From a candidate division FCPU426 bacterium (GTDB lineage: Bacteria > Oederibacteriota > Muellerivitia > Muellerivitales > Muellerivitaceae), in NCBI GenBank assembly GCA_030038835.1, contig JASHQZ010000153.1, forward strand, positions 1 through 46,002: DNA of 46,002 nucleotides. The letters are read 5' to 3'. Within the stretch, counting starts at the first letter, position 1, and each line of letters opens with the position of its first letter. Below the pieces are notes generated by a model. That model was given only the letters and a program-made list of their open reading frames with translations. It did not search any database and was not told the origin of the DNA. The translations under genes were made by a program, and so were the position numbers. This document shows positions 14,382-31,317 of the stretch, one piece after another.

Positions 14382-14445
14382 TTGACGGGGTCAAAAAGTG
14401 GAACAATAATGGCGCGAAGTGGGGGATAGTGGTAAAAAGTGGGGA
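14382..14445 (+). promoter_or_regulatory. dcw promoter with MraZ-binding direct repeats
   Basis: TTGACG-N17-AATAAT; GTGG cores at 14419, 14429 and 14439 (10-nt period), plus ATGG 14409 and GTGG 14398. Confidence 0.85.
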
Positions 14446-14486: not shown

Positions 14487-14945
14487 GTGTTCCGAGGGAT
14501 CTTTCACAACTCAGTGGACGACAAGGGGCGCACGAGCATTCCGGCGCGGTTCCGCGAACAAATCCGTGACGGACACGAAACGCCGCTGGTTTTGACCTTG
14601 GGTTTCGACCAATGCCTTTTCCTCTACCCCATGGATGCCTGGAAAAAGATCGAGGAGAAGCTGGCCGCCTTGGACACCTTGAACTCGGAAGTCCGCCAGT
14701 TCCAACGCACGATTTTGAAGGCCACCGATGAGGTGGAGATGGACCAGCAGGGACGCATTGTGATTTCGCCGGTTTTGCGGAAAGAAGCTGGCATCCACAA
14801 GAGCGTGGTGATCGTGGGGATGCTCCACCGCATCGAAATCTGGGACAAGGAGAAATACGAGAACTACCACGCCCAGACGACGCAATCGCTTGAACTTTTG
14901 GGCCAGAAGCTCTCTGACAAGGGCATTCAATCGCTGACGCTTTAA
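14487..14945 (+). CDS. mraZ: Division/cell-wall cluster transcriptional repressor MraZ
   Basis: MFRG start, two DxxGR motifs (DDKGR, DQQGR), RIEIWD. Confidence 0.97.
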   Translation: MFRGIFHNSVDDKGRTSIPARFREQIRDGHETPLVLTLGFDQCLFLYPMDAWKKIEEKLAALDTLNSEVRQFQRTILKATDEVEMDQQGRIVISPVLRKEAGIHKSVVIVGMLHRIEIWDKEKYENYHAQTTQSLELLGQKLSDKGIQSLTL

Positions 14946-15010: not shown

Positions 15011-15364
15011 ATGGAAATCGGAATCGAGATCAAGGAAAGGTTCTCCTTGGTCCACGTGAACGGCGATTTGAGCGAAGGCGACCTGGGGAAACTGGGCAAC
15101 GCGATCGAAACCTTGATGAAGAAGGGCTACTTGCACGTGGTTTTGGACTTGACCGGCGTTCCTTACATGAACGCCAAAGGGTTGGGGGCCCTGGTCAACC
15201 ATTGGACCCGCGTGCGCTTCAAGAGGGGGGATCTCCGCATTGTCGGCCTCAATAGCCGCCTCCTGCACCTGTTTAGGGTCATGGGCGTGGACGTCCTTTT
15301 TGACATCTACCAGGATGTCCACGAAATGATGGAGAAGACGGGACGGCTTCCCGCGATCGCATGA
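15011..15364 (+). CDS. STAS-domain (anti-sigma-factor-antagonist-like) protein 1
   Basis: VHVNGDL...VVLDLTGVPYMNAKGLGALV...RGDLRIVGL...LFRVMGVD; GGAGGG RBS. Confidence 0.9.
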   Translation: MEIGIEIKERFSLVHVNGDLSEGDLGKLGNAIETLMKKGYLHVVLDLTGVPYMNAKGLGALVNHWTRVRFKRGDLRIVGLNSRLLHLFRVMGVDVLFDIYQDVHEMMEKTGRLPAIA

Positions 15365-15463
15365 AGAAAATTTCGCACTCATTTCCATACCTCGGGCGAA
15401 GCCCGATTTAAAAGGGTAAATGGGGGAAAAACCAACAACTGCCAAAGTGGTTTGGAGGGGAAA

Positions 15464-15799
15464 TTGGCCGTTTATACGACGAACGAAACCATTACCGTGC
15501 TGCGCCTTTCGGGCGACATCGGCGTTTCCGACATGGAGGCGCTTCTGCGCAAGATGACGGACCTGGTCTTGGGGAACAAGAACAAGGCGGTCCTGAACTT
15601 CCGACAGGTGAAGCACATCTCCCTTAACGCCATCTCCAAGCTGGCCGAGCGCAACCAGCGTTTCCGGGCCTTGGGCGGGGAGGTCAAATTGGCCGGGCTG
15701 ACTCCCTACGTCGCCAACCTGTTCAAGCTCGTCGGGGCCTATTCGGGCTTTGATGTGGTCCTGGATGAGGAAGAAGCCGTCGCCCGCTTTGAAAGCTGA
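15464..15799 (+). CDS. STAS-domain protein 2
   Basis: LRLSGDI...VLNFRQVKHISLNAI...GGEVKLAGLTPYVANLFKLVG...EEEAVARF; TTG 15464 after GGAGG; stop overlaps the rsmH start. Confidence 0.9.
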   Translation: MAVYTTNETITVLRLSGDIGVSDMEALLRKMTDLVLGNKNKAVLNFRQVKHISLNAISKLAERNQRFRALGGEVKLAGLTPYVANLFKLVGAYSGFDVVLDEEEAVARFES

Positions 15800-16766
15800 G
15801 CAAACCCATATACCGGTCCTCTTAAAGGAAACGGTGGAATGGTTGTCCCCGCCTCCCGACGGGGTAGTGCTGGATATGACGGTCGGGATGGGCGGCCACG
15901 CGCAGGAGCTTTTGAAATCCCTTCCGCGGGGCCGCCTGGTTGGGTTGGACCAGGATGCCGATGCCCTTCAACACGCTGGCCGAGCACTCAGGAAGGACCC
16001 CCGGGTCTCCCTGTTCAAGGCTAACTTCGCCGACATCCTGTGGGTGCTAAAAGACCTTTCGATCAGCGAGGTTGACAGCGTGTTGATGGATATTGGCGTA
16101 TCCTCCCTTCAATTGGACACGGCCGGGCGCGGCTTTTCATTCGGCCTGGACGGCCCCCTGGACATGCGCATGGACATCCATTCGGGCCACACGGCCGCTT
16201 GGGTCGTGAACACCTACCCGGAAGGGAAGCTTTCCAAAGTCATCTTCGAGTACGGCGAGGAACCCAAGGCGCGCGCCCTGGCCCGGGCCATCGTGAGGGC
16301 CCGGGAGCAAAAGCATTTGGAAACCACCGGGGAACTGGCCGCGCTGGCCTTGCGAGTCTTGGGCAAACCCCGCCCCAAGCGGGGGGAGCCGTCCCGGCAC
16401 CCCGCCACCCGGCTTTTCCAGGCCCTCCGTATCGAGGTCAACCGCGAGCTGGAAGTACTGGAAAAGGGCTTGAAAGCGGCCCTTTACTTCTTAAAACCGG
16501 GCGGCCGGATCGCCGCCATTACCTTTCATTCGCTGGAAGACCGCATCGTCAAACAGTTCTTCAAAACCGAGGCCATGGACTGCCTCTGCCCGCCCGATAT
16601 CCCCCAATGCGTTTGCGGACACAAGGCCTCTCTGCGGATCCTGACCGGCAAGCCCGTGACGGCCTCCGAAGAGGAGGTCCGCCAAAACCCCCGGTCCCGA
16701 AGCGCGAAGCTCCGGGCCGCGGAAAAACTGCGGCCATCGGTCGTTAGCCCTCCATCCTCGGTTTGA
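15789..16766 (+). CDS. rsmH: 16S rRNA m4C1402 methyltransferase RsmH
   Basis: HIPVLL, DMTVGMGGH, DIGVSSLQLD, RGFSF, PLDMRMD, FHSLEDRIVK, NPRSRSAKLR; start uncertain (TTG 15789 or ATG 15765). Confidence 0.97.
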   Translation: MKAEQTHIPVLLKETVEWLSPPPDGVVLDMTVGMGGHAQELLKSLPRGRLVGLDQDADALQHAGRALRKDPRVSLFKANFADILWVLKDLSISEVDSVLMDIGVSSLQLDTAGRGFSFGLDGPLDMRMDIHSGHTAAWVVNTYPEGKLSKVIFEYGEEPKARALARAIVRAREQKHLETTGELAALALRVLGKPRPKRGEPSRHPATRLFQALRIEVNRELEVLEKGLKAALYFLKPGGRIAAITFHSLEDRIVKQFFKTEAMDCLCPPDIPQCVCGHKASLRILTGKPVTASEEEVRQNPRSRSAKLRAAEKLRPSVVSPPSSV

Positions 16767-16783
16767 AAGGGAACGGTCAAACC

Positions 16784-17215
16784 ATGCAGTCGACAGGCAC
16801 GATCAACATCGGGATGAAGAAGGCCGGGGAGATCCTCGACGCGGGCCTTTTCTGGCGCGGCAACCTGGCCAAGGCTGTCAAACGGCGCGATTTCAGGGGC
16901 ACGCTGGGGGGGGTCCTGGCCCTGAGCCTTTTCCTTTTTTTTTACGTCTGGCAGCACATGCAGGCGGTCAAGCTGGGTTACGAGGTACAGGAGCTGAAAA
17001 TGGAGAAACAGGAATTGACCAACCAATATTACTACCTCAAGTTCCAAATGTACGACGTGAACAGCCTCACGCGGGTGGAAAAAGTGGCAAGGGACCAGTT
17101 GGGGATGGTGACGCCCCGGGCGGACCAAATCGTCATTTTGGACGATGGGACCTCCTTTTATCCGCGATGGTTCTCCTTTTGGACCAGCGCGATGAAAAAA
17201 ACGGATGCCAAGTGA
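16784..17215 (+). CDS. ftsL: Cell division protein FtsL
   Basis: Lies between rsmH and ftsI; single TM, coiled coil, RVEKVARDQLGMVTP; start uncertain (16763, 16784 or 16814). Confidence 0.88.
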   Translation: MQSTGTINIGMKKAGEILDAGLFWRGNLAKAVKRRDFRGTLGGVLALSLFLFFYVWQHMQAVKLGYEVQELKMEKQELTNQYYYLKFQMYDVNSLTRVEKVARDQLGMVTPRADQIVILDDGTSFYPRWFSFWTSAMKKTDAK

Positions 17216-17416: not shown

Positions 17417-19558
17417 ATGAGCGGGTTAAGGCATTACAACCAAATCCAAAAGCGGCTCCTTCTGTTGCAGGGGCTCATCCTGGCCTCGGTGCTTTGCGTG
17501 GAGGGACGCCTGGCCTACCTTCAGGTCCTCAAACACGCGGAATTCCGCCAGCTGGCCTACCACCAGCAATACACACCCAAGGAAACCACCCCCTCCCGGG
17601 GCGTCATCGAGGACCGGTCGGGGGCCTTGCTTGCCATGAATATCGGTTTGTTCAATGTTTGCGCCCATCCCAACCAGATCGCCGAAAAGGCGTCCACGGC
17701 CGAGGCCCTCTCCCGCGCCCTGGGGATGTCTTATGCCGAGATCCTCTCCAAGATCGCCGGGGACAAGCCCTTTGCCTGGGTGGCCCGCCAGGTGCCCTAT
17801 GAGCGGTCCCAGGCGGTGGAAAACCTGAAATTGCAGGGCGTGGAGGCCTCCCGCGAGCAAAGGCGCTTTTATCCCGACCATGAGATGGCCGCCCACGTGC
17901 TGGGATTCGCAGGCATCGACGACCAGGGGTTGAACGGGCTGGAGCGCGAATACAACAACAGCCTCACCGGGAAGAGCGGGCTGGTTTTGACCGAAAGGGA
18001 CGCCCGTGGACGGGTGGTGTTGTCCGACAACGAAACCAAAATGGCCGCCGTGGACGGCCTGAACGTGGTGACCACCCTCGACAAGACCCTCCAGCACATC
18101 GCCCAGGTGGAACTGGAAAAGGCCTACGAGAAATACCGCTGCAAGGCAGCCTCCATCGCGGTCATCGACCCCCGCACCGGAGAAATCCTGGCCCTGGCCA
18201 ACTATCCCAATTTCGACCCCAACCACTTCAATGAAGTCCCCCAGGAATGTTGGAAGGACCGGATGGTGAACGACGAATTTGAACCCGGCAGCACCTTCAA
18301 GCTGGTGGCGGCCGTGGGCGCCCTGGAGGAGGGCGCGGTGAACGAAGACGACAAGTTTTTCTGCGAAAACGGGGCCTACCGCACCGATTACGGCCGGGTG
18401 GTGACGGACCACGAGAAGTATGGCTGGCTGACCTTCCGGGAAATCTTCGGGTATTCCAGCAACATCGGCATGGTGAAGGTGGCCGCCAAGCTGGGCGAGA
18501 AAAATCTATTCCGTTATTGCCAGCGTTTCGGCTTCGGCGTGACCACCGGTATCGACCTGCCGGGGGAGGTTTCCGGCACCTTGCGGCCCTTGGACAAATG
18601 GAGCGGCCTTTCCATGACCACCATTCCCTACGGCTATGAGGTGTCCACGACGCCCATCCAGATGTTGGCCGCCTACGCGGCCATCGCCAATGGCGGGGTC
18701 ATGATGCGGCCCCACGTAGTGAAAGAACTGGTGGATTCGGAAGGCAAGGTGGTCCGGGAATTCGGGCCCCAAAAAATCCGCCGCGTGTGCTCGGCCCAAA
18801 CCGCCACGCGCATCACGGAAATGATGAAATGGGTCGTGGAAAAGGGGACGGGCACGGCGGTGGCCCTGCCCTCCTACGACATCGCCGGAAAAACCGGTAC
18901 CGCCTACAAATTCATGAATGGGCATTACTCCAAGTATGACTACGTCTCCTCCTTCATCGGCTTCGTGCCGGCGGAAAACCCCAAGTTCGCCATCTACGTC
19001 TCCCTGGACGACCCCCGTGGGCTTTATTGGGGCGGTTACACGGCCGGCCCGGTCTTCAAAGAAGTGGCCAAGCGGGCGCTCGTGTACGACCTGGTGCCGG
19101 GCAAGGATCAGGCGCCGGCCGTGGCGCAGGACGGGGAACGGCGTTCCATTCCATCCTTCAAAGGCCTGACCCGCGAGCAAAGCGCGTGGCTGGCCCAGGA
19201 GGGCCGGTTCGGAATCAAGTTCAACGGCCAGGGGGACCGGGTGGTGGACCAGTCCCTGCCAGCCGGAGGAACGCTGGCGCCGGAAAACAACAAGCCCGTC
19301 AAGATTGTCCTGACCCTAGGGGCGCCCCCGGCTCCCCTGGCCCAGGGTGTCATGCCGGATTTAAGGGGAAAGACCAAACGGCAGGCCCTGGCCCTTTTGG
19401 CGCCGCTTGGAATACGCGTGAACTTCAAGGGCGAGGGGGTGGTGCGATCGCAATTTCCACCCGCAGGGCGGGCGGTCCAGGACGGAACGGCCTGCGACTT
19501 GAGCTGCGAGGTGCCCGTGGCCAAAACGACTTCCTCCGACGGGGAGAGCAACTCGTGA
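17417..19558 (+). CDS. ftsI: Class B PBP (FtsI) with two C-terminal PASTA domains
   Basis: RGVIEDR, RRFYP, GLNGLE, EPGSTFK (SxxK), SSN, KTGT; IPSFKGLT and MPDLRGKT PASTA starts. Confidence 0.96.
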   Translation: MSGLRHYNQIQKRLLLLQGLILASVLCVEGRLAYLQVLKHAEFRQLAYHQQYTPKETTPSRGVIEDRSGALLAMNIGLFNVCAHPNQIAEKASTAEALSRALGMSYAEILSKIAGDKPFAWVARQVPYERSQAVENLKLQGVEASREQRRFYPDHEMAAHVLGFAGIDDQGLNGLEREYNNSLTGKSGLVLTERDARGRVVLSDNETKMAAVDGLNVVTTLDKTLQHIAQVELEKAYEKYRCKAASIAVIDPRTGEILALANYPNFDPNHFNEVPQECWKDRMVNDEFEPGSTFKLVAAVGALEEGAVNEDDKFFCENGAYRTDYGRVVTDHEKYGWLTFREIFGYSSNIGMVKVAAKLGEKNLFRYCQRFGFGVTTGIDLPGEVSGTLRPLDKWSGLSMTTIPYGYEVSTTPIQMLAAYAAIANGGVMMRPHVVKELVDSEGKVVREFGPQKIRRVCSAQTATRITEMMKWVVEKGTGTAVALPSYDIAGKTGTAYKFMNGHYSKYDYVSSFIGFVPAENPKFAIYVSLDDPRGLYWGGYTAGPVFKEVAKRALVYDLVPGKDQAPAVAQDGERRSIPSFKGLTREQSAWLAQEGRFGIKFNGQGDRVVDQSLPAGGTLAPENNKPVKIVLTLGAPPAPLAQGVMPDLRGKTKRQALALLAPLGIRVNFKGEGVVRSQFPPAGRAVQDGTACDLSCEVPVAKTTSSDGESNS

Positions 19559-21036
19559 AATTCCTGACCCTCTCCAAAACCATCAAGGGCGCGAAAATGG
19601 CGGGTAAGGGCAACCCCGTATTGACGGGCATCGCGGAAAATTCCAAAACAACCCATCCGGGCGAGCTTTTCGTTTGCATCCCCGGGTCCAAGGCCGACGG
19701 GCGGGCCTATGCGGAGGAAGCGGTGCAGTTGGGCGCCCAGGCCCTCGTGGTCCAAGGCGAACCCTTGCGGGGTTTGGAAGTCCCCCAACTGGTGGTCAAG
19801 GACAGCCGGGAGGCCCTGGCCCGCCTGGCCCACGCCTACTATGGAAACCCCTCGAAAAAGGTCAAAGTGCTCGGCGTGACCGGCACCAAAGGGAAAACCA
19901 CCACTACCTACCTGATCCGTTCCATCCTTCAAAAAGCGGGCCAGGAAGCGGGTTTGATCGGCACCATCGCCTACCAGATCGGCCCCAAGATTTACGAGGC
20001 CAACAATACCACGCCCTCGTCCCTGACCCTGGTCAAGCTCCTGGACGAAATGCGCAGGAAAAAATGCAAATGGGCGGTGATGGAGGTTTCCTCGCACGCA
20101 CTGGAGATGAAGCGGGTCCTGGGGGTGGAGTTCACGGGCGCGGTCTTCACCAACCTGGGCCGGGACCACCTGGACTACCACAAGAATTTCACCAACTATT
20201 TTATGGCCAAACGACGGTTGTTTACGGAGTTCAAGAGCGTCAAGGCCCGCGCGGTCAACGCGGACGACCCCTACGGCCAGAAACTTTTGAGGGAGCTCAA
20301 GTCCAAGGCCGTGGGTTACGGGATCAAGTCCAAATGCGCCTATCGCGCCGCCCATGTGGAGCATAAGCCGGGACTGATCCGTTTCGAGGTGCAAGGCCAA
20401 AAATTCGAGGCGCCGCTGACGGGTCTCTTCAATGTTTACAACTCGCTGGCCGCCCTTTCGGTCTTAAGGGAACTGGGCCTTTCCTGGGAAGTCCTGAAGG
20501 ACGGGTTGAGGCGCGCGCCGGCGGTTCCGGGCCGGTTCGAGGAAGTCTCCGCCGGACAGGATTTCACGGTACTGGTGGATTACGCCCACACGCCCGACGC
20601 CCTGAAGCAGGCCCTGGCGGCCTCCCGGGAAATTTTGGGGAAAAAGAGCCGGCACCGGCTGATCTCGGTGTTCGGGTGCGGCGGGGACCGGGACAAAACC
20701 AAGCGCCCCTTGATGGGCAAGATTTCCGCCCAACTGGCCGACATGACGGTGGTGACCTCGGACAACCCGCGCACGGAAAACCCCTCGGCCATTTTGGAGG
20801 ACATCCTGCGGGGGATCCCCCGGCCGCTCCGGGAAAACGGGCACCGAAAGGTTTGGGTGGAGGAGGAGCGGGGCGCGGCCATCCTCAAAGCGCTGTCCAT
20901 GGCTCAAAAGGGGGACTTGGTCCTTATCGCGGGCAAGGGCCATGAGACCTACCAGATTATCGGTAACGAGAAGCGCCACTTCGACGACCGGGAAGTGGCA
21001 AGGGAAATACTGAAGAAGATGACCAAGGCTTCCTAA
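19555..21036 (+). CDS. murE: UDP-MurNAc-L-Ala-D-Glu--meso-DAP ligase
   Basis: GVTGTKGKTT, MEVSSHAL, DHLDYH, DYAHTPD, DNPR (meso-DAP specificity), AGKGHE; GTG 19555 overlaps the ftsI stop. Confidence 0.97.
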   Translation: MKFLTLSKTIKGAKMAGKGNPVLTGIAENSKTTHPGELFVCIPGSKADGRAYAEEAVQLGAQALVVQGEPLRGLEVPQLVVKDSREALARLAHAYYGNPSKKVKVLGVTGTKGKTTTTYLIRSILQKAGQEAGLIGTIAYQIGPKIYEANNTTPSSLTLVKLLDEMRRKKCKWAVMEVSSHALEMKRVLGVEFTGAVFTNLGRDHLDYHKNFTNYFMAKRRLFTEFKSVKARAVNADDPYGQKLLRELKSKAVGYGIKSKCAYRAAHVEHKPGLIRFEVQGQKFEAPLTGLFNVYNSLAALSVLRELGLSWEVLKDGLRRAPAVPGRFEEVSAGQDFTVLVDYAHTPDALKQALAASREILGKKSRHRLISVFGCGGDRDKTKRPLMGKISAQLADMTVVTSDNPRTENPSAILEDILRGIPRPLRENGHRKVWVEEERGAAILKALSMAQKGDLVLIAGKGHETYQIIGNEKRHFDDREVAREILKKMTKAS

Positions 21037-22376
21037 TGCTTCCATGGACCTTGCGGGAGGTTGCCGCCCTTGCCAACGGGCGGCTGGTGAGGGGGGAGGG
21101 TGAAAGCAGAATCACGGGGGTCGTGCACGACACCCGCGACGTGGGAAAGGGCGACCTTTTCGCCGCCATCCGCGGGAGCCGGCTGGACGGCCACCGGTTC
21201 GTCAGGCAAGCCGCGCAAAAGGGCGCCAAGGCCGCGTTGGTTTCCCGGGTCATGGCCGTGGGGGTTCCGCAAGTCCTGGTGGCGGACACCACCCGGGCGT
21301 TGGGCGACCTGGGGAGGGCCCAACGGCTGCAGTGGAACGGCCCTGTGGTGGCGGTGACGGGCAGCGTGGGCAAGACCACGGTCAAGGACATGACGGCCCA
21401 ACTGCTCTCGGGTTCCTTCCGGGTCCTGAAGACGCAGGGGAACCTGAACAACCAATGGGGCCTGCCGCTGACCCTGTTGAAGCTGAGGACGGAGCATGAG
21501 GTGGCAGTGGTGGAGCTGGGCATCAACCACCCCGGGGAAATGGAAAGGCTTTCCGACATATCCAGGCCCGACGTGGCCGTGGTGACGGCCATCGGGGAGG
21601 CGCACCTTGGGTTTTTCAAGGACCGCCGCCACCTGGCGCGGGAAAAACAAACGATCGCGGCGCATTTAAGGGAAAGGGGAACCAACATCTTGAACGCGAA
21701 CGACGCCTTGCTGAGGAAGAACGTGGAAAACGTGATGACCTTCGGGCTGAAATTGGGCCAGGTGCGGGCCGTCCGCCTGGAGCCGGACGGGTTGGGGACG
21801 CGTTTCGAGATCCGGGCGCAGGGTGAAACTGCGGCCACGCGGCTTTCCATGCCGGGCGCGCACAACGTGCGCAATTCCATGGCGGCGGTTGCGGCGGGCC
21901 TGGCCCTGGGGATCCCCTTGAAGGCCCTGGCCCAACGGTTGAGGAACTTTGTTTCCGAAGCGCCCATGCGCATGGAGATCAAGAACCTGGGCGGCATCCT
22001 TTTCGTCAACGACGCGTACAACGCCTCGCCGACCTCGATGGAGGCGGCCCTGGTCACCTTCGCCGGCATGCAGGGCCCGCAACGCAAATGGGCGGTCCTG
22101 GGCGACATGCTGGAACTGGGAGAATTCTCGCCCGAGACCCATTACCGCATCGCGAAAAAGGCCATGGGCAGCGGTTTGGAGGGCGTGCTTTTGGTAGGGT
22201 CCCGCATGCGGAGGGCCTTCAACGGCTTGACCGGGGGACAAAAAAACAAGGCCTGGGCCTTCGGGGAAGTGGCGGACGCCCGGATGTTCTTAAGGCGGTC
22301 CGTGGAGAAGGGCGACGCGGTCCTCTTGAAGGCCTCGAGAGGCATGAGGTTGGAAAAAATCCTGGAGGGATTTTGA
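21036..22376 (+). CDS. murF: UDP-MurNAc-tripeptide--D-Ala-D-Ala ligase
   Basis: VTGSVGKTTVK, NLNNQWGLPLTL, NDAYNASP, LGDMLELG, KASRG. Confidence 0.97.
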   Translation: MLPWTLREVAALANGRLVRGEGESRITGVVHDTRDVGKGDLFAAIRGSRLDGHRFVRQAAQKGAKAALVSRVMAVGVPQVLVADTTRALGDLGRAQRLQWNGPVVAVTGSVGKTTVKDMTAQLLSGSFRVLKTQGNLNNQWGLPLTLLKLRTEHEVAVVELGINHPGEMERLSDISRPDVAVVTAIGEAHLGFFKDRRHLAREKQTIAAHLRERGTNILNANDALLRKNVENVMTFGLKLGQVRAVRLEPDGLGTRFEIRAQGETAATRLSMPGAHNVRNSMAAVAAGLALGIPLKALAQRLRNFVSEAPMRMEIKNLGGILFVNDAYNASPTSMEAALVTFAGMQGPQRKWAVLGDMLELGEFSPETHYRIAKKAMGSGLEGVLLVGSRMRRAFNGLTGGQKNKAWAFGEVADARMFLRRSVEKGDAVLLKASRGMRLEKILEGF

Positions 22377-22377
22377 G

Positions 22378-22572
22378 ATGCTCGACCTGAAACAGTTCCT
22401 GGACGGCTTGGCGGACGAGAACCACCCCTTCCGCAAAGGGCCGGATTTAAGGCAAGGATCGGCCCTGCCCCCGGAAGAAACAATGGAGAAGGTGTGGGGG
22501 CCCTTCCGGAGGGATGAAGCTTGGAGGGAGCGGCAGGTGCGGTTTTACTTCATGAGGATCAACAAAAACTAA
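22378..22572 (+). CDS. Small hypothetical protein (64 aa) inside the dcw cluster
   Basis: GGAGG at 22364; starts 1 nt after the murF stop and ends 10 nt before mraY; mostly G/C third codon positions. Confidence 0.7.
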   Translation: MLDLKQFLDGLADENHPFRKGPDLRQGSALPPEETMEKVWGPFRRDEAWRERQVRFYFMRINKN

Positions 22573-22582
22573 GGATTCAACG

Positions 22583-23671
22583 GTGCTTTACAAACTACTT
22601 TACCCCCTGGCCAGCCATTTCATCGGTTTCAACGTCTTCCGTTACGTCACCTTCCGGAGCGTCTACGCCGCCGTGACGGCTTTCGGGCTCTGCCTGCTTT
22701 GGGGACGCGCGGTGATCGCCCGAATCCAGGCGGCCCAACTGGGGGAGAAAATACGCTATGACGGCCCGGCCGGCCATTCCTCCAAGGCTGGAACGCCCAC
22801 CATGGGAGGGGTTCTCATCCTTTTGGCGCTTGTCCTCAGCGGCCTTCTTTGGGTGCGTTTGGACTCGAAATTCTTCTGGCTGGCCTTCTTTTCCATCCTG
22901 TGGTTCGGCTGCCTCGGATTTTTGGACGACCTCATCAAGCTCAAGGGCATCGGTAAAAGCCGGGGAATTCCCGGGGGGTGGAAGCTGATGTTCCAGTTCA
23001 TCGGGGCCATCCTGATTGTTTATGGATACCTGTATGTCCTGCCGGACGACTTCGTCTTGAAAACCGCCATTACCCTTCCTTTCTTTAAACATCCGCTCAA
23101 CCTGGACGTGGTCTACCCCTTTTTCGCCATCCTCGTCATCGTCGGGGCCTCCAATTCGGTCAACCTGACGGACGGATTGGATGGGCTGGCCATCGGCTGC
23201 ACCACCTTCGCGGCCATGGCCTTCGTGGTGGTCACCTATGTGTCCGGCAACGTGAAGTTCAGCGAGTACCTCAAAATCATCCAAGTGCCGGGCTCCAGCG
23301 AGCTCACGGTCCTTTGCGCGGCCCTGGTGGGAGCGGGACTGGGGTTCCTCTGGTTCAACGCCCCCCCGGCGCAAATCTTCATGGGCGACACCGGATCGCT
23401 TGCCTTGGGCGGACTTTTAGGGACCATCGCGGTGATGGTAAAGCAGGAAGTCCTCCTCATCATCGTGGGCGGCATCTTCGTGGCCGAGGCGCTTTCGGTC
23501 ATCATCCAAGTGACTTCCTTCAAGATGAGCGGCAAGAGGGTTTTCAAGATGGCGCCCTTGCACCACCATTTCGAGTTGTCGGGGGTTCCCGAATCCAAGC
23601 TCATCGTGAGGTTTTGGATCATCGCCATCATATTGACGTTGCTGACGCTTTCGACCTTGAAACTTCGTTGA
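22583..23671 (+). CDS. mraY: Phospho-N-acetylmuramoyl-pentapeptide transferase
   Basis: KAGTPTMGG, LDD, NLTDGLDGL, FMGDTGSL, MAPLHHHFEL. Confidence 0.98.
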   Translation: MLYKLLYPLASHFIGFNVFRYVTFRSVYAAVTAFGLCLLWGRAVIARIQAAQLGEKIRYDGPAGHSSKAGTPTMGGVLILLALVLSGLLWVRLDSKFFWLAFFSILWFGCLGFLDDLIKLKGIGKSRGIPGGWKLMFQFIGAILIVYGYLYVLPDDFVLKTAITLPFFKHPLNLDVVYPFFAILVIVGASNSVNLTDGLDGLAIGCTTFAAMAFVVVTYVSGNVKFSEYLKIIQVPGSSELTVLCAALVGAGLGFLWFNAPPAQIFMGDTGSLALGGLLGTIAVMVKQEVLLIIVGGIFVAEALSVIIQVTSFKMSGKRVFKMAPLHHHFELSGVPESKLIVRFWIIAIILTLLTLSTLKLR

Positions 23672-23679
23672 ACGAAAGG

Positions 23680-23781
23680 CCAACACGAAGGCACAAAGAC
23701 CCCCAGAAAGGCAGCGAAGTGATAAAGAAAAAAAACCAAAGTAAAAAAGATGGTCCATGTGCCTTCGTAACCCCGTGTTGG
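23680..23781. repeat. Imperfect inverted-repeat element between mraY and murD
   Basis: CCAACACG/CGTGTTGG and ACGAAGGCACA/TGTGCCTTCGT arms around an A-rich spacer. Confidence 0.7.
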
Positions 23782-23800
23782 AAGTTGGTTTAGGAGACTT

Positions 23801-25180
23801 ATGCATTACGTGCACGGAAAACAAGTGGCGGTTATCGGGTTGGGCCGGTCCGGTTTCGCGGCGGCGCGGCTTTTGTCCGTCCATGGCGCCCATGTGGTCG
23901 TCCTGGATGACAAGACCCCGGAAAAACTTTCGGGCTGGATCGAGCGGGCCGAGCAGTTGGCCCACGTGAAGCTCCTGCTGGGGGGCATCGACCCCGCCAC
24001 CGTGGCCAACGCGGACCTGGTGGTGGTCTCCCCCGGCGTTCCCGCGAACCACCCGACCCTGGAAGCGGCCCGGGAGAAGGGAATCACGGTGATTGGGGAA
24101 ATGGAACTGGCGTTCGGCTATTGCCCGGCGCCGGTGGCGGCCATTACGGGCACCAACGGCAAGACCACCACCACCACCCTGGCGGCCGCCATGATCCAGG
24201 CCTCGGGACAGAAAGCCGTCGCCTGCGGCAACATCGGAAAGGCCTTCTCGGAGGCGGTTTTCGAGCTTTGTACGGAGGATTGGGCGGTGCTGGAAGTTTC
24301 CAGCTTCCAACTAGAGACTATCGAGGAATTCCGGCCCAAGGTGGCCGCGGTCCTGAACGTGACGCCGGACCACCTGGACCGGCACCAGGGCATGCAGGAG
24401 TACGTGGAGACCAAGGGACGAATCTTCGAAAACCAAAAACCCGGGGATGCGGCCCTGCTGAATCTTTCCGACAAGTACACCCCCATCCTTTCCACCCTGG
24501 TCAAAAGCCGGCTTTATTTCTTCGGCTTCCCCGGGAACAAACCCGCCCCCAAACCCGGTTGTTACGCCTTGGACGGAAAAATCGAGCTCTTGGGCCGCCC
24601 CCTGCTCCCCGTGTCGGAATTGAAGATACCCGGGCCGCACAACGTGGAAAACGCCTGCGCGGCGTCCCTCATGGCCTCCCTTTGCGGGGTTCCGGACGAA
24701 TCCATCGCGAAGACCCTCCGAGACTTCACGGGAGTAGAGCACCGCCTGGAGGCGGCGGGCGAGATCAACGGCGTCCGATTTGTGAATGACTCCAAGGGGA
24801 CCAACGTGGATTCGGTGCTGAAGGCCCTGGAGAGCTTCGAAAGGCCCATCGTGCTCATCCTGGGCGGCCGGGACAAGGCCAGTGACTTCACGAAACTGGG
24901 CTCCCTGGTGAAGCAAAAGGTCACGCGCATCGTGGCCTTCGGGGAATGCAAGCAAAAGATCGTCCAGCAGCTTTCCCCCGCCGCCACGGTCGTGGAGGCG
25001 GGAAGCCTCGAGGAAACGGTGAACGGAGCCTATGCGGCCTGCGAGAGGGGCGGCGTGGTGCTGTTTTCGCCCGGTTGCGCCAGTTTCGACATGTTCCAGA
25101 ACTACGAGGACCGCGGAAGGCAGTTCAAGGCGGTGGTGGCCAAGATGGCCCAGCAAAAGGCCGGAAAAGTGAACGTTTAA
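23801..25180 (+). CDS. murD: UDP-MurNAc-L-Ala--D-Glu ligase
   Basis: GLGRSG, SPG, ITGTNGKTT, EVSSFQL, DHLDRH, NDSKGTN, SPGCASFD. Confidence 0.98.
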   Translation: MHYVHGKQVAVIGLGRSGFAAARLLSVHGAHVVVLDDKTPEKLSGWIERAEQLAHVKLLLGGIDPATVANADLVVVSPGVPANHPTLEAAREKGITVIGEMELAFGYCPAPVAAITGTNGKTTTTTLAAAMIQASGQKAVACGNIGKAFSEAVFELCTEDWAVLEVSSFQLETIEEFRPKVAAVLNVTPDHLDRHQGMQEYVETKGRIFENQKPGDAALLNLSDKYTPILSTLVKSRLYFFGFPGNKPAPKPGCYALDGKIELLGRPLLPVSELKIPGPHNVENACAASLMASLCGVPDESIAKTLRDFTGVEHRLEAAGEINGVRFVNDSKGTNVDSVLKALESFERPIVLILGGRDKASDFTKLGSLVKQKVTRIVAFGECKQKIVQQLSPAATVVEAGSLEETVNGAYAACERGGVVLFSPGCASFDMFQNYEDRGRQFKAVVAKMAQQKAGKVNV

Positions 25181-25189
25181 TCGTGGAAA

Positions 25190-25465
25190 GGCCCGAAGAT
25201 CCCACGGGAATCTTTGGGCCGTCGCTTGGGGATGGGGTTTTAAAAGTTTTGCAAACGAAAGGATTTTCATTCTTGCGTTCGGATTCTGAGACCAACACCT
25301 ACCAACGCCTATTCAACACCTCCGAAGCCTTGCTCGGAATCCGAACGGAAGGATGAACTTCCAAAAGCAGTGTTGAGTTCTAAGTTTTGAGCGGATGAAC
25401 GTTTCCCAATGAAATTCATTGGGAAACAAACCGTAACTTAAAACTACAAACTTGAAACTAAGAAC
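25190..25465. repeat. Three hairpins with embedded short tandem repeats between murD and ftsW
   Basis: Hairpin 25190-25220; 25-bp stem 25266-25290/25333-25357; perfect 13-bp palindrome 25401-25427 flanked by heptamer arms. Confidence 0.8.
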
Positions 25466-25476
25466 CGAGGTTCAGG

Positions 25477-26643
25477 ATGGGTTTTAGAAAACAAGAACAA
25501 GCTTCGCCGGACTTCCTGATTTTCCTGTTGACCCTGATTTTGGTCACGGTGGGGCTCATCATGATCTACAGCGCCTCGGCCATCCTGGCCCATGACCGCT
25601 ACGGGAGTTCCTATTACTTCTTCGGCCGGCAGCTGCTCTGGGTTTTGGCGGGGAGCGCCGCCATGTGGGTGGTTTCGCGGGTGGACCTGGAATCCATGCG
25701 CGCCCTGGCCATCCCAGGATTGTTCACGGCCATCTTCCTGATGGCCCTGGTATGCGTGCCGGGGATCGGGAAGACCGTGGGTGGGGCCCAAAGGTGGTTC
25801 CGCCTGGGGCCCTTCTCGTTCCAGCCGTCGGAAGTCTTAAAGATCGCCCTGGTTTTCTACTTGGCGGATTCCCTGGAGCGACGCCGGCAAACCCTCTCGA
25901 ACCTCTCGGGGCTGTTTCCCTACCTCGTGATCCTGGGAATCTGCATGCTGCTTTTGGAAAAACAACACGACTTCGGGACGGCGGTGCTTTTGGCCCTGGT
26001 CACCATCCTTTTGCTTTTCCTGGCCGGGATGCAATGGACTTTTTTCCTGATCCCTCTTTCCATCCTGCTGCCGGTTTTCATCTTCCTGGTGGAGTCGGCC
26101 AGCTACCGCATGAAGCGCATCACGGCCTTTTTAAACCCATGGGAAGACCCGCAGGGCGCCGGGTTCCAGCTGATCCAAAGCCTGATCGCCGTGGGCAACG
26201 GCGGGCCGCTGGGGGTGGGACTTTCCAACAGCTCGCAAAAGCTCTTCTACCTTCCCGCGCCCCATACGGACTTCATCTTCGCCATCATCGCCGAGGAACT
26301 GGGGATGGTGGGGGCGGGCACCCTGGTATTCCTTTTCGGGGTCTTTATCCTCAGGGGCTTCAAGGTGGCCTCGGTGTGGGGACAAAGGGAGGGCGGGATG
26401 TTCCTGTCACTCTTGGCCGCGGGCATTACGGCGATGATCGGGTTCCAAACCTTGATCAACTTGGGGGTGGTGACGGGTCTCCTTCCCACCAAGGGCATCC
26501 CCCTGCCGCTGATTTCCTACGGAGGATCTTCCATGGTCTTTACCCTGGTTTCCATCGGAATCCTGTTCAACATCTCCCGGGGAATCAAAATGCCGTCGCC
26601 CTTGACGGAAGGGGCCGGGTATGGGGCCCTCGGGATCGGCTGA
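25477..26643 (+). CDS. ftsW: SEDS peptidoglycan polymerase FtsW
   Basis: GAQRW, FQPSE, HDFGT, LPAPHTDFIFAIIAEELG, LPTKGIPLPLISYGGSS. Confidence 0.97.
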   Translation: MGFRKQEQASPDFLIFLLTLILVTVGLIMIYSASAILAHDRYGSSYYFFGRQLLWVLAGSAAMWVVSRVDLESMRALAIPGLFTAIFLMALVCVPGIGKTVGGAQRWFRLGPFSFQPSEVLKIALVFYLADSLERRRQTLSNLSGLFPYLVILGICMLLLEKQHDFGTAVLLALVTILLLFLAGMQWTFFLIPLSILLPVFIFLVESASYRMKRITAFLNPWEDPQGAGFQLIQSLIAVGNGGPLGVGLSNSSQKLFYLPAPHTDFIFAIIAEELGMVGAGTLVFLFGVFILRGFKVASVWGQREGGMFLSLLAAGITAMIGFQTLINLGVVTGLLPTKGIPLPLISYGGSSMVFTLVSIGILFNISRGIKMPSPLTEGAGYGALGIG

Positions 26644-26684
26644 GGCCAGGGGGATAAAAATGAAAATTATGAAAGGCTTGAAAA

Positions 26685-27800
26685 GTGGAAGGGAACAAGA
26701 AACGAATCATCATCACCGGCGGAGGCACGGGGGGGCACATTTTCCCCGGAATCGCCATCGCCCGGGAGCTGTCGAGGCATCCGGAGGTTCAAGTGCTTTA
26801 CGTGGGTAAGGCCGAAGGGCTGGAATCCAAATGGGTCCCGGACTCGGGGTTTGAGTTCGAGGGCATCCAAGCCAGCGGTTTCCCACGGGGGTTTTCGGCC
26901 AAGTTTTTCGCCTTTTGGCTGGATTTCGCCAAGGGAATGGCCCAGGCGGGCCGGATCCTGCGGCGTTTCCGGCCGGACGTTATTTTTTCAACGGGAGGTT
27001 ACGTGTCAGTGCCGGTATCGCTGGCGGCGGCCTTGAGGGGCGTCCCGGTGGGGTTGTTCGAGCCCAACGTCGCGCCAGGGTTGGCGGCCCGGTTTTTATC
27101 TTTTTTCTCAAGGAGGATTTTCGTCGGGTTTGAGGACACTTTAAAACGCCTTTCGAAAAGGAGAACCCAATGGACGGGAATTCCGGTACGGGAAGAAATC
27201 ATCACGGCGGACAAGCGGAAAGCGCGGGAGAGCCTCGGGCTGAGCCTGGATACGGCCACTCTCCTGATGCTGGGCGGCAGTCAGGGGGCGCATACGCTCA
27301 ACCAGCACATGACGGATGTGATCAAGTTTTTGGGGGAGGGGGACCAGAAGGTCCAAGTGATCATGATGACCGGCTGGAACGATTACCGCAAGACGGTGGA
27401 CCAACTGGAAAACTGCGGCCTCAAGGTGGTTTTGAGGCCCTTTATCAGCAACATCCACGAAGCCTACGCGGCGGCCGACCTGGTGGTGGCCCGATCCGGA
27501 GCCATGACCTGCGCCGAAGCCTTAAGCCGGGGATTGCCGGCTCTTTTTATTCCCTATCCCCACGCTTCCGGACACCAGGAGATGAATGCGAGGGCCTTGG
27601 AGAGGGCTGGATCGGCAGTCGTGATTACCGAAAAGGAGCTGGACGACGAAAGCCTCACCCGGATGCTGATTTCCCTCCTTTCGGATGAGGGCCAATTGGA
27701 GGCGATGGGCGAGGCCGCCCGCAAACTGGCCAAGCCGGGGGCGGCCGCCGAGATCGTGAGAGGCCTGCTCGAGATGGCGGAAAAGAAGGGAATCAAGTGA
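26685..27800 (+). CDS. murG: Lipid II synthase MurG
   Basis: GGGTGGHIFP, TGGYVS, GIPVR, GGSQGA, RSGAMTCAE, HQEMNA. Confidence 0.97.
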   Translation: MEGNKKRIIITGGGTGGHIFPGIAIARELSRHPEVQVLYVGKAEGLESKWVPDSGFEFEGIQASGFPRGFSAKFFAFWLDFAKGMAQAGRILRRFRPDVIFSTGGYVSVPVSLAAALRGVPVGLFEPNVAPGLAARFLSFFSRRIFVGFEDTLKRLSKRRTQWTGIPVREEIITADKRKARESLGLSLDTATLLMLGGSQGAHTLNQHMTDVIKFLGEGDQKVQVIMMTGWNDYRKTVDQLENCGLKVVLRPFISNIHEAYAAADLVVARSGAMTCAEALSRGLPALFIPYPHASGHQEMNARALERAGSAVVITEKELDDESLTRMLISLLSDEGQLEAMGEAARKLAKPGAAAEIVRGLLEMAEKKGIK

Positions 27801-29200
27801 AAGTTAAAACCAAAATCCAAACCCTGCCCTTCGCCAACGTGCGGAGGGTCCATTTCATCGGCATTGGCGGGGCCGGCATGAGCGGTATCGCCGCGGTGCT
27901 CCTAAGCCTGCACTACGAGGTCACGGGCTCGGACCTGAAGGCCTCCGACGTGACGGACCGACTCGTGGAAATGGGCGCCCAGATCCACTTCGGCCACAAG
28001 GCGGGGAACGTGGCCGGGGCGGATGTCGCGGTTTATTCCGCAGCCGTGCCCATGGACAACCCGGAGATCCAGGAGGCCCATAAAAGGGCCATCCCGGTCA
28101 TCGCGCGCACGGAAATGCTGGCCGAGTTGATGCGCCTGAAGTACGGCATCGCCATCTCGGGCACCCACGGCAAGACCACCACCACCTCCATGATCGGACT
28201 GGTCATGACCGAGGCGGGCTTGGATCCCACCCTGGTCATCGGCGGCCAGGTGGATGTGTTCAAATCCAACGCCAAGCTGGGCAAGGGCGACTACCTGGTG
28301 GCCGAGGCCTGCGAGGCTTTCGGCGAGTTTTTCCTGCTTTCCCCCATGATCTCCATCGTCACCAATATCGACGACGACCACTTGGACTATTACGGTTCCA
28401 TCGACAAGGTGCGGGACGCCTTCGTCACCTTCGCCAACAAGGTGCCCTTTTACGGCTGCGTGATACTCGGCGTCGACGACAAACAAGTGCAGATGATCCT
28501 GCCCCAGATCAAACGCCGCATCATGACCTACGGCTTCTCCAGGGAAGCGCAGGTGTCGGCGCACAAGGTCAGACTCGAAAAGGCGGGTTCGGCCTTCGGA
28601 GTCGCCTTCCAGGGGAAAAAACTTGGGGCCGTCCGGTTGAACGTGCCGGGGCGGTTCAACATCCAAAACGCACTGGCGGCGGTGGCCGTGGGGCTGGAAC
28701 TCAAGGTCCCCTTCAAGAAGATCGCGGCCGGCCTCGTCCGCTTCCGCGGCGCCAAGAGGCGTTTCGAGGCCAAGGGCACCTACAAGGGAGCCGCGGTTAT
28801 GGACGATTATGCCCACCATCCCACGGCCGTGGCCGAAACCCTGAAGGCGGCCCGCAATTTCGCGGGCAACAAGAAGCTCCTGGTGGTGTTCCAACCCCAC
28901 CTTTTTTCCCGGACCCAGCTTTTGCGCGACAAGTTCGGTAAATCCTTCGGCGACGCGGATGAGGTGGTGATCGCGGCCATCTATCCCTCCCGGGAAAAGC
29001 CCATTCCCGGGGTTACGGGCATGACCCTGGTGGAGGCCCTACGGGAGAACATTCATCCCGACGTTCGTTACATCGAAGACCGAACGGCGTTGTTGGAATA
29101 CCTGAAGAGCCGTTTAACGGACCGATACGTGTTAATGACCATGGGCGCGGGGGACATTTGGAAAGTGGGGACCGACCTCGTCCAAAAACACAAAGGCTGA
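27797..29200 (+). CDS. murC: UDP-MurNAc--L-Ala ligase
   Basis: FIGIGGAGMSG, GTHGKTTT, DHLD, DDYAHHP, FQPH, MGAGD. Confidence 0.98.
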   Translation: MKVKTKIQTLPFANVRRVHFIGIGGAGMSGIAAVLLSLHYEVTGSDLKASDVTDRLVEMGAQIHFGHKAGNVAGADVAVYSAAVPMDNPEIQEAHKRAIPVIARTEMLAELMRLKYGIAISGTHGKTTTTSMIGLVMTEAGLDPTLVIGGQVDVFKSNAKLGKGDYLVAEACEAFGEFFLLSPMISIVTNIDDDHLDYYGSIDKVRDAFVTFANKVPFYGCVILGVDDKQVQMILPQIKRRIMTYGFSREAQVSAHKVRLEKAGSAFGVAFQGKKLGAVRLNVPGRFNIQNALAAVAVGLELKVPFKKIAAGLVRFRGAKRRFEAKGTYKGAAVMDDYAHHPTAVAETLKAARNFAGNKKLLVVFQPHLFSRTQLLRDKFGKSFGDADEVVIAAIYPSREKPIPGVTGMTLVEALRENIHPDVRYIEDRTALLEYLKSRLTDRYVLMTMGAGDIWKVGTDLVQKHKG

Positions 29201-29343
29201 AAGACGGGATTGGCCGGGGAAAGGCGGGGGACTCCAAGATGAGGATCTGGGAATGATGAAGCGAAAAATGAAATTAAATCCGAGCGATCCTTTAAGTTTT
29301 CCCCGCGGACTTCGCGCTTTCGCGGTGAAGGGTCGGTTTTGAC

Positions 29344-30312
29344 GTGCTAACGATGGAAAGGGAAACCGTGGATTTCGGGGAGCTCAAACATTTGATCAAG
29401 GGAAAGGTGGAGTTCGACCACCCCATTGCCCCTTATACCACCTACCACTTGGGCGGGAAGGCGGCAGCTTTCGTGGAGCCCCAAACCCTCCAAGACCTCG
29501 CCGAACTCCTGCGCTGCCTGACCCACGCGGGGGCGCCTTACCTGGTGCTGGGCGGCGGCAGCAACGTGCTTTTCGCCGACGGGGGTTTCCGGGGGGTCGT
29601 GATCCGCCTAGGGCGGGGGTTCCAAGGCCTTCGCATCGAAGGCGACCGGGTGTGGGCTAAGGCCGGCACCAAGCTGGTGACGGTCCTCACTAAGGCCAGG
29701 GAGGCGGGGTTGGGCGGTGTGGAATTCTTTGCCGGTATCCCCGGCACCCTCGGCGGGGCGGTGGTGGGCAACGCGGGCGCCAAAAAGGCCTGGATTGGCC
29801 CGACGGTGGAGGAATTGACCATCGTGACGCCCCACGGCCAGGTAAAGCAGCTGAAAAAGGCGGATTACAAGTACGGCTACCGCAATTCGTCCTTGAAATT
29901 GAGCGGCAACGTGCTGGTGGAAGTGGCACTGAAGCTGAAGAAGGAACCCAAAGCCGAAATTGAGAAAAAGGTGAAGGAATATTTCAAAATCCGCCGGGGC
30001 AAGCAGCCCAAGACGGAAAGGAACGCGGGCAGCGTGTTCAAGAACCCCGAAGGCAATTTCGCGGGAAGGCTGACCGAATCCGTGGGGTTGAAGGGGTTCA
30101 AGGTCGGCGGTGCCAGGGTCAGCGAGATCCACGCCAACTTCATCATCAACGAAGGCACCGCCACCGCCCATGACGTGGCGGCCGTGATGCGGGAAATCCA
30201 GAAGCGGGTCTGGGCGGAGTACCAGATCCGGCTGGAACCCGAAGTCCTGCCACTGGGGGATTGGGATTGGGACGATATCAAGGATGTTTTTTGGAATTTG
30301 AAGGGCCGCTAA
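29344..30312 (+). CDS. murB: UDP-N-acetylenolpyruvoylglucosamine reductase
   Basis: LGGGSNVL, GIPGTLGGAVVGNAGA, YRNS, NAGSVFKNP, HANFIIN; alternative ATG at 29353. Confidence 0.97.
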   Translation: MLTMERETVDFGELKHLIKGKVEFDHPIAPYTTYHLGGKAAAFVEPQTLQDLAELLRCLTHAGAPYLVLGGGSNVLFADGGFRGVVIRLGRGFQGLRIEGDRVWAKAGTKLVTVLTKAREAGLGGVEFFAGIPGTLGGAVVGNAGAKKAWIGPTVEELTIVTPHGQVKQLKKADYKYGYRNSSLKLSGNVLVEVALKLKKEPKAEIEKKVKEYFKIRRGKQPKTERNAGSVFKNPEGNFAGRLTESVGLKGFKVGGARVSEIHANFIINEGTATAHDVAAVMREIQKRVWAEYQIRLEPEVLPLGDWDWDDIKDVFWNLKGR

Positions 30313-30327
30313 GGAAAAGCGGCGTGG

Positions 30328-31317
30328 TTGACCGACACCTTGGACAACGCGGTTGGGAAAATCAGAGGACTGGAGCGCGAGATGAAAGTCGGCGTTTTGA
30401 TGGGGGGATGGAGCCCGGAAAAAAAAATTTCCATGATGTCCGGGAAAGGCGTGGTGGAAGGGTTGAAAAAGGCGGGGATTAAAGCCGTGCCGCTGGTTTT
30501 AACCGCGGCGGATAAGGATGAAAAACAGCTGGAAAAGAGGATTAAGGCCGCCAAGTTGGACGCGGTTTTCATCGCCTTACACGGCGGGTTTGGGGAGGAC
30601 GGAACCTTGCAGGCTTTGTTGGACAAATGGGGGGTGGCCTATACCGGCTCGGGGGCCCTGGCCTGCGGATTGGCCATGCACAAAGGCTGCTCCAAGCTCG
30701 TTTTTGAGGCCAACGCGATTCCCACGGCCCCTTGGCAGGCCTTGCATAAGAGTTGGGGGAAAGGGAAGCGGCTCAAGGAAATCAGGCTGGGCTTTCCCCT
30801 GGTGGTCAAACCCGCCGACGTCGGCTCGGCCATCGGTGTGACCATCGTGAAAAAAAGGGATGAACTGGTGAAAGCCATCCAAAAGGCCTTCCAATACAGT
30901 CCTTGGGCCATCGTGGAGAAATTCGTTCCCGGCGTTGAGGTGACCGTCACAGTCCTGGGGCGAAAGGCCTTGCCCGTCATCGAAATCGTGCCAAAAAACG
31001 AATTCTACGACTTTGACGCCAAATACACGCCGGGCCAATCCGACCATGTGGTCCCGGCCCGCATTGCGGCCAAGAACGCCCAAAAAGTGAAGGCCTATGC
31101 GGTCCGGGCGGGAAAGGCCATGGGCTGCGAGGACTATTACCGCGTGGACTTCATCGTCCCCGGGAGCGGGGAGCCGCGGATCCTGGAAGTGAACACTGCG
31201 CCCGGCATGACCGCCACCAGCCTGGTGCCGGACGCGGCCAAGGCGGCGGGCATGGCATTCCCGCAGTTCTTGAAAACGGTGGTTGGCATGGCGCTCAAAA
31301 GGAGGAAAAAAGCCTGA
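30328..31317 (+). CDS. ddl: D-alanine--D-alanine ligase
   Basis: LHGGFGEDG, YTGSG, PLVVKP, FYDFDAKY, RVDF, LEVNTAPGMT; alternative ATG at 30382. Confidence 0.96.
   Translation: MTDTLDNAVGKIRGLEREMKVGVLMGGWSPEKKISMMSGKGVVEGLKKAGIKAVPLVLTAADKDEKQLEKRIKAAKLDAVFIALHGGFGEDGTLQALLDKWGVAYTGSGALACGLAMHKGCSKLVFEANAIPTAPWQALHKSWGKGKRLKEIRLGFPLVVKPADVGSAIGVTIVKKRDELVKAIQKAFQYSPWAIVEKFVPGVEVTVTVLGRKALPVIEIVPKNEFYDFDAKYTPGQSDHVVPARIAAKNAQKVKAYAVRAGKAMGCEDYYRVDFIVPGSGEPRILEVNTAPGMTATSLVPDAAKAAGMAFPQFLKTVVGMALKRRKKA

Follow-up and report, generated by a model that had tools for sequence, protein, structure and literature searches.

A previously undescribed STAS-only protein family, mostly devoid of the phospho-acceptor serine, resides between mraZ and rsmH in the dcw cluster of uncultured bacteria

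The window analysed here, a stretch of DNA of 46,002 nucleotides, contains a dcw cluster in which two stand-alone STAS genes, STAS1 and STAS2, are located between mraZ and rsmH (Table 1). A sequence-only reading of this DNA had described two STAS ORFs that split the mraZ-rsmH pair, the second of which overlaps the start of rsmH, and both statements hold. The two proteins match the Pfam STAS domain, and mraZ, STAS1, STAS2 and rsmH are all encoded on one strand. Every in-frame ATG or TTG preceding the conserved RsmH N-terminus HIPVLL (15750, 15753, 15765 and 15789) falls within STAS2, and the overlap is thus real; with the STAS2 stop codon at 15797-15799, it covers 11-50 nt depending on the rsmH start. 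For STAS2 itself, the TTG at 15464, which stands behind the sequence GGAGGGG, is the likelier start over 15452; the database gene call gives a protein of 111 aa and the N-termini of relatives concur. The dcw cluster that follows the STAS pair is complete through ftsZ, which ends at 35159, with murE assigned by position to the ORF at 19027-21036 (+ strand). The FtsI homologue (17417-19558) bears a C-terminal PASTA domain (Pfam 4.6e-13, residues 645-691), and straight after ftsZ, on the same strand (35281-38642), are genes for a polysaccharide deacetylase, an Amidase_3 N-acetylmuramoyl-L-alanine amidase and a Cu-oxidase_4 (YfiH/PgeF-like) protein. The window also encodes a homologue of the flagellar hook protein FlgE (1816-3702), by which the organism is probably flagellated.

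Table 1. Features of the mraZ-STAS-rsmH region and of the dcw cluster in the window.
Feature	Position	Strand	Basis
Sigma-70-like promoter of the dcw operon	14382..14410	+	TTGACG 14382-14387, 17 nt, AATAAT 14405-14410; 10/12 matches
GTGG direct repeats (n=3, 6-nt spacers), putative MraZ operator	14419..14442	+	sequence read
mraZ	14487..14945	+	Pfam MraZ 1.2e-34; TIGR00242 6.2e-43, 146 bits vs cut-off 98
STAS1, 117 aa, Ala at phospho-site (YMNAKGLG)	15011..15364	+	Pfam STAS 2.5e-15
STAS2, Leu at phospho-site (HISLNAIS)	15464..15799, alternative start 15452	+	Pfam STAS 1.5e-11
rsmH (mraW)	15765..16766, start uncertain	+	Methyltransf_5 6.6e-108; TIGR00006 336 bits
ftsL	16763..17215	+	Pfam FtsL 1.8e-06, 28.4 bits vs cut-off 22.9
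ftsI, murE, murF, mraY, murD, ftsW, murG, murC, murB, ddl, ftsQ, ftsA, ftsZ	17417..35159	+	Pfam scan, murE excepted

By position and orientation, both STAS genes belong to the dcw operon: the slot they occupy lies 3' of the promoter and operator that precede mraZ, and no terminator is evident in between. The promoter and the GTGG boxes recur 5' of mraZ in most of the 19 loci listed from relatives in the window's family, and the layout of the boxes suggests that MraZ would repress at or just after the transcription start. A fourth GTGG is located within the promoter spacer (14398-14401). Terminator-like signals show no excess between 13700 and 17500, where six were found and 6.3 are expected from shuffled sequences, and an Rfam scan of the whole window found nothing. 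With a promoter and boxes upstream and no excess of terminators, the simplest reading is that mraZ, STAS1, STAS2 and rsmH would be co-transcribed from the MraZ-controlled promoter.

Both proteins pass the cut-off of the Pfam STAS domain (PF01740, 22.6 bits), STAS1 with 56.6 and STAS2 with 44.5 bits, and are modeled by AlphaFold2 with pLDDT values of 87.0 (STAS1, which has the STAS topology) and 89.6 (STAS2). In a structural search made with the STAS2 model only, the best PDB match was SpoIIAA (1thn_B, TM 0.87, E 3.9e-09). The anti-sigma-factor antagonist superfamily model TIGR00377 (cut-off 53.45) places STAS1 above its threshold with 59.6 bits and STAS2 below it with 38.5 bits, and the SpoIIAA equivalog model TIGR02886 gives 33 bits for STAS1 and 28 bits for STAS2 vs a cut-off of 114.75. 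In antagonists of the SpoIIAA/RsbV kind the phosphorylatable Ser opens helix alpha2 within a D-S-S/T-G motif. In SpoIIAA the phospho-acceptor, which we take to be the first Ser after the Asp, lies in the motif FMDSSGLG, and a deposited SpoIIAA variant that reads FMDASGLG agrees with this position. Ungapped phmmer alignments to SpoIIAA show STAS1 to read YMNAKGLG (Ser to Ala) and STAS2 to read HISLNAIS (Ser to Leu), which bears out the earlier observation that both proteins lack the switch Ser. The three other stand-alone STAS paralogues of the window genome have kept it.

The mraZ-STAS-rsmH arrangement is not unique to this genome, an outcome that had been considered when the locus was first read: it is kept throughout much of the phylum and, as described below, in all of the best 80 of 266 Binatia-type metagenome loci. 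The phylum set comprised 99 genomes of 23 families, with mraZ found in 92 and the loci scanned with HMMs. A STAS gene, here referred to as dcw-STAS, lies directly 3' of mraZ in 79 of these 92 genomes, the window's family (f1) accounting for 27 of them and 16 other families for 52; in G075 the locus is split by a contig break. The HMM scan of the loci detected no STAS between mraZ and rsmH, which are otherwise adjacent, in 12 of the 92 genomes (G025, G027, G029, G034, G040, G044, G047, G048, G049, G051, G052 and G053), which are spread over families f2, f4, f6, f11, f12 and f13. Gene junctions around dcw-STAS are tight or overlapping in the 17 families of the phylum and in the second lineage described below. 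Two STAS genes occur in family f1 only, in 21 genomes, five f1 genomes (G009, G015, G017, G019 and G071) have STAS2 alone between intact flanks, and contig ends cut two f1 loci (G008 and G075). In f1 genomes that do not have STAS1, a non-coding gap of about 200-380 nt separates mraZ from STAS2 (e.g., L028 of G015, 591-967, and L026 of G019, 1332-1542), at the site where other f1 genomes have STAS1. Broken genes were observed in G014, with STAS2 in two pieces (L035, 948-1282), and in G016, a genome 63% complete in which STAS2 is partial and both STAS2 and rsmH are broken (L011, 161-1318); either misassembly or gene decay in these metagenome-assembled genomes may account for this.

The relationship between the two genes was addressed with a tree of 62 rows that includes dcw-STAS proteins, the STAS paralogues of the window genome and four sequences from outside the phylum. 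All dcw-STAS fall on one side of this tree and the paralogues and the four out-of-phylum sequences on the other, with support of 91/89, which is good, below the tool's starred level and drawn from an alignment of only 117 columns. The STAS2 proteins of f1 form a clade (99/96) that joins the single genes of families f8 and f3 (86/74 and 85/90), while the STAS1 proteins of f1 form a clade (100/99) on a long branch (1.4) that lies inside the dcw group and is otherwise placed nowhere firm. Since STAS2 groups with the single genes of other families and STAS1 is divergent within the dcw group, STAS2 is the ancestral gene. On this phylogenetic evidence the two genes are non-equivalent, STAS2 being the local ortholog of the phylum-wide dcw-STAS and STAS1 a fast-evolving extra copy restricted to f1, which would be most simply explained as a tandem duplicate. 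Pairwise Nei-Gojobori comparisons among 19 f1 genomes, using pairs with dS 0.1-2, gave median dN/dS values of 0.175 for STAS1 (128 pairs, 26 saturated pairs dropped), 0.21 for STAS2 (121 pairs, 21 dropped), 0.18 for RsmH (168 pairs, none dropped) and 0.10 for MraZ (96 pairs, 45 dropped). The two STAS genes are thus no chance ORFs, being conserved and subject to purifying selection, and the substitution pattern indicates that both are functional genes.

Loss of the phospho-acceptor extends to nearly the whole family. The residue at the site in 101 dcw-STAS proteins of the phylum is Leu in 38, Ala in 29, Val in 23, Ile in 3, Met in 3, Arg in 2 and Ser in 3, and none of the 101 has Tyr. The three that keep Ser belong to G055 and G056 (family f7) and G058 (family f10), and all read HINSTG. 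At position -3, where canonical antagonists have Phe or Tyr, 71 of the 101 proteins have His. Ser or Thr is found at +1 in 44 (e.g., HINVSG or HINATG) and at -1 in 33 (Ser in 31 and Thr in 2), including the Ser at -1 of STAS2. Nowhere in the loop do all members of the dcw-STAS clade have Ser or Thr, and the STAS1 motif YMNAKGLG contains neither.

Beyond the phylum, a dcw-STAS profile searched against 1.84 billion representative proteins retrieved 62,497 matches at E<=1e-3. The best 150 of these are mostly multi-STAS proteins that keep Ser, and among the single-domain matches there is a set that lacks Ser and reads H-x-x-[Y/L/A]. Many proteins of 600-1500 aa with three tandem STAS domains and the motifs YISSGGWG or YINSTGMG (P0093-P0107 and others) were seen, proteins of about 225 aa with two STAS domains are also numerous among the profile matches, and one representative (P0128) is dcw-like in its first half (HISYSGLN) and Ser-bearing in its second. 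Domain fusions hinting at a partner were looked for in seven longer representatives, which contain STAS domains only, and the ESM Atlas returned generic STAS clusters only. A metagenome scan with three members of the HINY type yielded 266 confirmed stretches, the best 80 of which were kept. Within these best 80 of 266 loci, the order mraZ-STAS-rsmH is found in 68, mraZ-STAS is followed by the contig end in seven and STAS-rsmH follows the contig start in five, so that none breaks the order; the motif HINYLSIG occurs in 78 of the 80. Close homologues of the HINY group (81-96% identity) are labelled at NCBI as 'Candidatus Binatia bacterium' or 'Deltaproteobacteria bacterium', and single homologue rows as Terriglobales and Verrucomicrobiae. 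The absence of Tyr at the site from the dcw-STAS proteins of the window's phylum suggests that the HINY (Binatia-type) group belongs to another lineage, and the gene orders recovered here indicate that the dcw-STAS slot is kept in at least two uncultured bacterial lineages. Candidates that were considered and set aside are the loci L050-L053 (Rhodothermaceae, Gemmatimonadales and Acidobacteriota), which have no mraZ or rsmH flank and at least three of which keep Ser, and the Haliangium structure PDB 4hyl, the sole myxobacterial STAS encountered, which keeps Ser in the motif YMSSAG.

When these sequences were included in a second tree (65 rows), the dcw-STAS of the phylum, the Binatia-type loci and 20 further Ser-less representatives fell on one side with support of 93/90, again good and below the starred level on an alignment of only 117 columns, and four Ser-bearing representatives and the paralogues fell on the opposite side. 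The possibility, raised in the sequence-only reading, that these proteins nest among ordinary phosphorylatable RsbV homologues is thus not borne out, as in both trees they form a clade of their own apart from the Ser-bearing paralogues. There are two exceptions to the division, the Ser-bearing P0176 and P0205, which fall within the Ser-less side, with P0205 (YINSLSIG) nested in the Binatia group. The Ser-keepers (HINSTG and P0205) have close relatives whose residue is Ala, Ile, Met or Tyr, which indicates that the site changes state repeatedly within the dcw-STAS family. Moreover, the three HINSTG members and the position of P0205 imply that phosphorylation may have been the original state and may survive in some lineages, and the Ser/Thr residues at +1 or the Ser at -1 of STAS2 could be alternative acceptors.

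An important aspect of the analysis is whether the usual partners of a STAS antagonist are encoded by the same organisms. In the window, 46 of 47 script-picked ORFs were scanned (the one left out, 14942-15616 on the minus strand, lies opposite STAS1), and no HATPase_c_2 kinase, PP2C domain or sigma factor turned up among them, in agreement with the earlier statement that an anti-sigma kinase, a PP2C phosphatase and a sigma factor are all missing there. The window does encode an ordinary histidine kinase (42605-43738) and a sigma-54 activator (41144-42556). The window genome contains no SpoIIE-type PP2C (PF07228), and its matches to HATPase_c_2 (PF13581) are weak and in ORFs of 378-973 aa; as this genome is only 85% complete, the absence of kinase and phosphatase there is weak evidence. 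In four of five near-complete relatives a single ORF of 772-892 aa combines HATPase_c_2 and SpoIIE (G012:C11:46862-48763, G006:C5:218470-220380, G004:C4:576023-577915 and G015:C27:61062-62861), and in three of these four (G004, G006 and G012) it is adjoined, away from the dcw locus, by a STAS gene of its own. The fused ORF with its adjacent STAS looks like a kinase-phosphatase partner-switch module, which was not encountered in the incomplete genome of the window. G021 (99% complete) has neither HATPase_c_2 nor SpoIIE, yet contains both STAS1 and STAS2. Of the 99 genomes of the phylum, 75 have HATPase_c_2 at E<=1e-10, among them G025, G027, G029, G050 and G053, which do not have dcw-STAS, and at this threshold the kinase domain is absent from all five genomes of family f5 and from G021, G097 (94% complete), G077 and G068, all of which carry dcw-STAS. 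No anti-sigma or sigma gene was found near dcw-STAS in the loci examined.

Several known STAS-only proteins provide points of comparison. SpoIIAA and RsbV share with the proteins described here the Pfam domain, the size (about 110-117 aa) and the predicted fold, and STAS1 passes the superfamily model TIGR00377. The differences are that Ser is replaced by Ala or Leu, that STAS2 remains below TIGR00377, that the genes are embedded in the dcw operon without adjacent kinase, phosphatase or sigma genes, and that dcw-STAS also occurs in genomes devoid of HATPase_c_2. Mycobacterial RsfA is a phosphorylation-independent antagonist that acts on an anti-sigma factor of SigF. Set beside dcw-STAS by description only, RsfA is alike in being a STAS-only protein that works without Ser-phosphorylation switching, but it has an anti-sigma partner, whereas here none is evident and the context is the dcw operon. 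MlaB is the STAS accessory of the MlaFEDB ABC transporter and resembles dcw-STAS as a small STAS protein that is a constitutive binding subunit instead of a phospho-switch. However, the MlaB model NF033618 gives 16.2 bits vs a cut-off of 90 for STAS1 and no match for STAS2, no mla or ABC transporter genes flank the STAS pair, and MlaB is absent from the 50 structural matches listed. SypA, BtrV and RbaV are likewise STAS-only and either act on something other than a classical sigma/anti-sigma pair or have no known output partner, but the STAS-only review (PMC8256260) describes them as retaining the conserved Ser and being served by a cognate kinase and phosphatase. Full-text searches found no literature that joins STAS proteins or anti-sigma antagonists with mraZ, mraW, rsmH or dcw. 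The terms 'STAS' and 'anti-sigma' have no occurrence in the text of a paper on dcw synteny (PMC8871954), and 'cell division' has none in the STAS-only review (PMC8256260). As far as these searches reach, the dcw-STAS proteins are a previously undescribed STAS-only family, defined by dcw residence and loss of the phospho-switch, and the description of the locus as a dcw-linked STAS module, proposed from the sequence alone, is a fair one given that the slot is kept across the phylum and in the Binatia-type loci.

Because Ser has been lost, the SpoIIAA-like fold has been kept and an RsbW-type kinase domain is dispensable, the most likely mechanism of these proteins is that of a phosphorylation-independent binding adaptor. 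We consider it slightly more likely than not that dcw-STAS is such a STAS adaptor, with a dosage that follows expression of the dcw operon. The amount of dcw-STAS would be set by transcription from the MraZ operator and by translational coupling to rsmH, and not by a kinase/phosphatase switch, and the protein would tune a partner in step with the expression of division and wall genes; both this dosage logic and the link of dcw-STAS to division are what we infer from the context of the gene. The loop that in SpoIIAA contacts the kinase is near-invariant within lineages and different between them, as exemplified by HINVSGIE, HINYLSIG and HVSLNAIS, which fits co-evolution with a protein partner. 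A complex prediction with MraZ, RsmH, STAS1 and STAS2 gave STAS2 as partner a score of 0.00 (mark 0.32, no controls) and speaks neither for nor against binding. Counting against the adaptor reading are the presence of HATPase_c_2 in three quarters of the phylum's genomes and in most carriers, the frequency of Ser or Thr at +1, the three canonical Ser residues and the 12 genomes that do without dcw-STAS. A bolder version, which we regard as doubtful, is that dcw-STAS represents an unrecognised extra core gene of the dcw cluster in several uncultured phyla, duplicated in f1, that would bind MraZ, RsmH or a divisome ATPase of the FtsA or FtsE type and so connect the MraZ-RsmH pair to division control.

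Other explanations of the locus differ in what they make of the genomic slot and of the missing Ser. STAS domains have many kinds of partners, and dcw-STAS could be a passenger that uses a strong constitutive operon merely as an expression platform, with its role in unrelated stress, transport or lipid handling (MlaB-like or SulP-like). The 12 genomes in which mraZ and rsmH are adjacent without it would agree with this, but the precise slot has been kept in 17 of the phylum's families as well as in a second lineage, its gene junctions are tight or overlapping, and MlaB scores low and is missing from the 50 structural matches listed, all of which makes a passenger unlikely. A slightly smaller chance is given to the idea that these proteins are constitutive decoys, which cannot be phosphorylated, bind an anti-sigma factor or kinase and are never switched off, so that sigma activity would follow dcw expression. 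The STAS2 model is closest to SpoIIAA complexed with SpoIIAB, STAS1 exceeds the TIGR00377 cut-off, and in PDB 1tid and 1til it is a SpoIIAA with Ala at that very position that is bound to SpoIIAB; against this, some carriers have no RsbW-type domain, STAS2 does not reach TIGR00377 and no anti-sigma or sigma gene is close by in the loci examined.

Persistence of classical partner switching seems less likely again. Here, a distant kinase, for instance the fused HATPase_c_2-SpoIIE protein, would phosphorylate the Ser or Thr at -1 or +1, and the dcw site would couple a sigma switch to growth. The fused ORF of the near-complete relatives, the wide distribution of HATPase_c_2 in the phylum, the frequency of Ser/Thr at the two neighboring positions and the three canonical Ser residues all speak for it. 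Nevertheless, no loop position is Ser/Thr across the clade and the STAS1 motif has neither, the f5 genomes, G021 and G097 carry dcw-STAS without HATPase_c_2, and the fused kinase-phosphatase is already provided with a STAS next to it. The view first taken of this locus, that it does not represent classical partner switching, is thus upheld as far as such switching is unlikely in a family that has mostly lost Ser, forms its own clade and has carriers without an RsbW-type kinase. Least credible, with hardly any weight, is a small-molecule sensor in which a remodelled beta3-alpha2 loop with a conserved His binds an NTP or metabolite and reports to the division machinery. In its favor are the frequent His at -3, a loop that hardly varies within a lineage (17 of the 27 genomes in families f8 and f15-f23 read HINVSGIE, and 78 of the best 80 Binatia-type loci read HINYLSIG) and the assignment of this loop to NTP binding by Aravind and Koonin (2000), as cited in PMC8256260. 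Between lineages, however, the loop differs markedly, a pattern more in keeping with a protein partner that co-evolves with it than with a universal ligand.

In all, the adaptor reading makes dcw-STAS of interest both for the dcw cluster and for the STAS domain. Within the dcw cluster, itself among the most conserved gene arrangements of bacteria, no part is less understood than mraZ-rsmH. A family fixed between these two genes across uncultured lineages offers a concrete lead to a joint role of MraZ and RsmH, and dcw-STAS would at the same time be a natural example of a STAS protein that works without a phospho-switch. Although no carrier is in culture, these proteins of about 110 aa, together with MraZ and RsmH of the same loci, represent a set that is testable in vitro or in E. 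coli.
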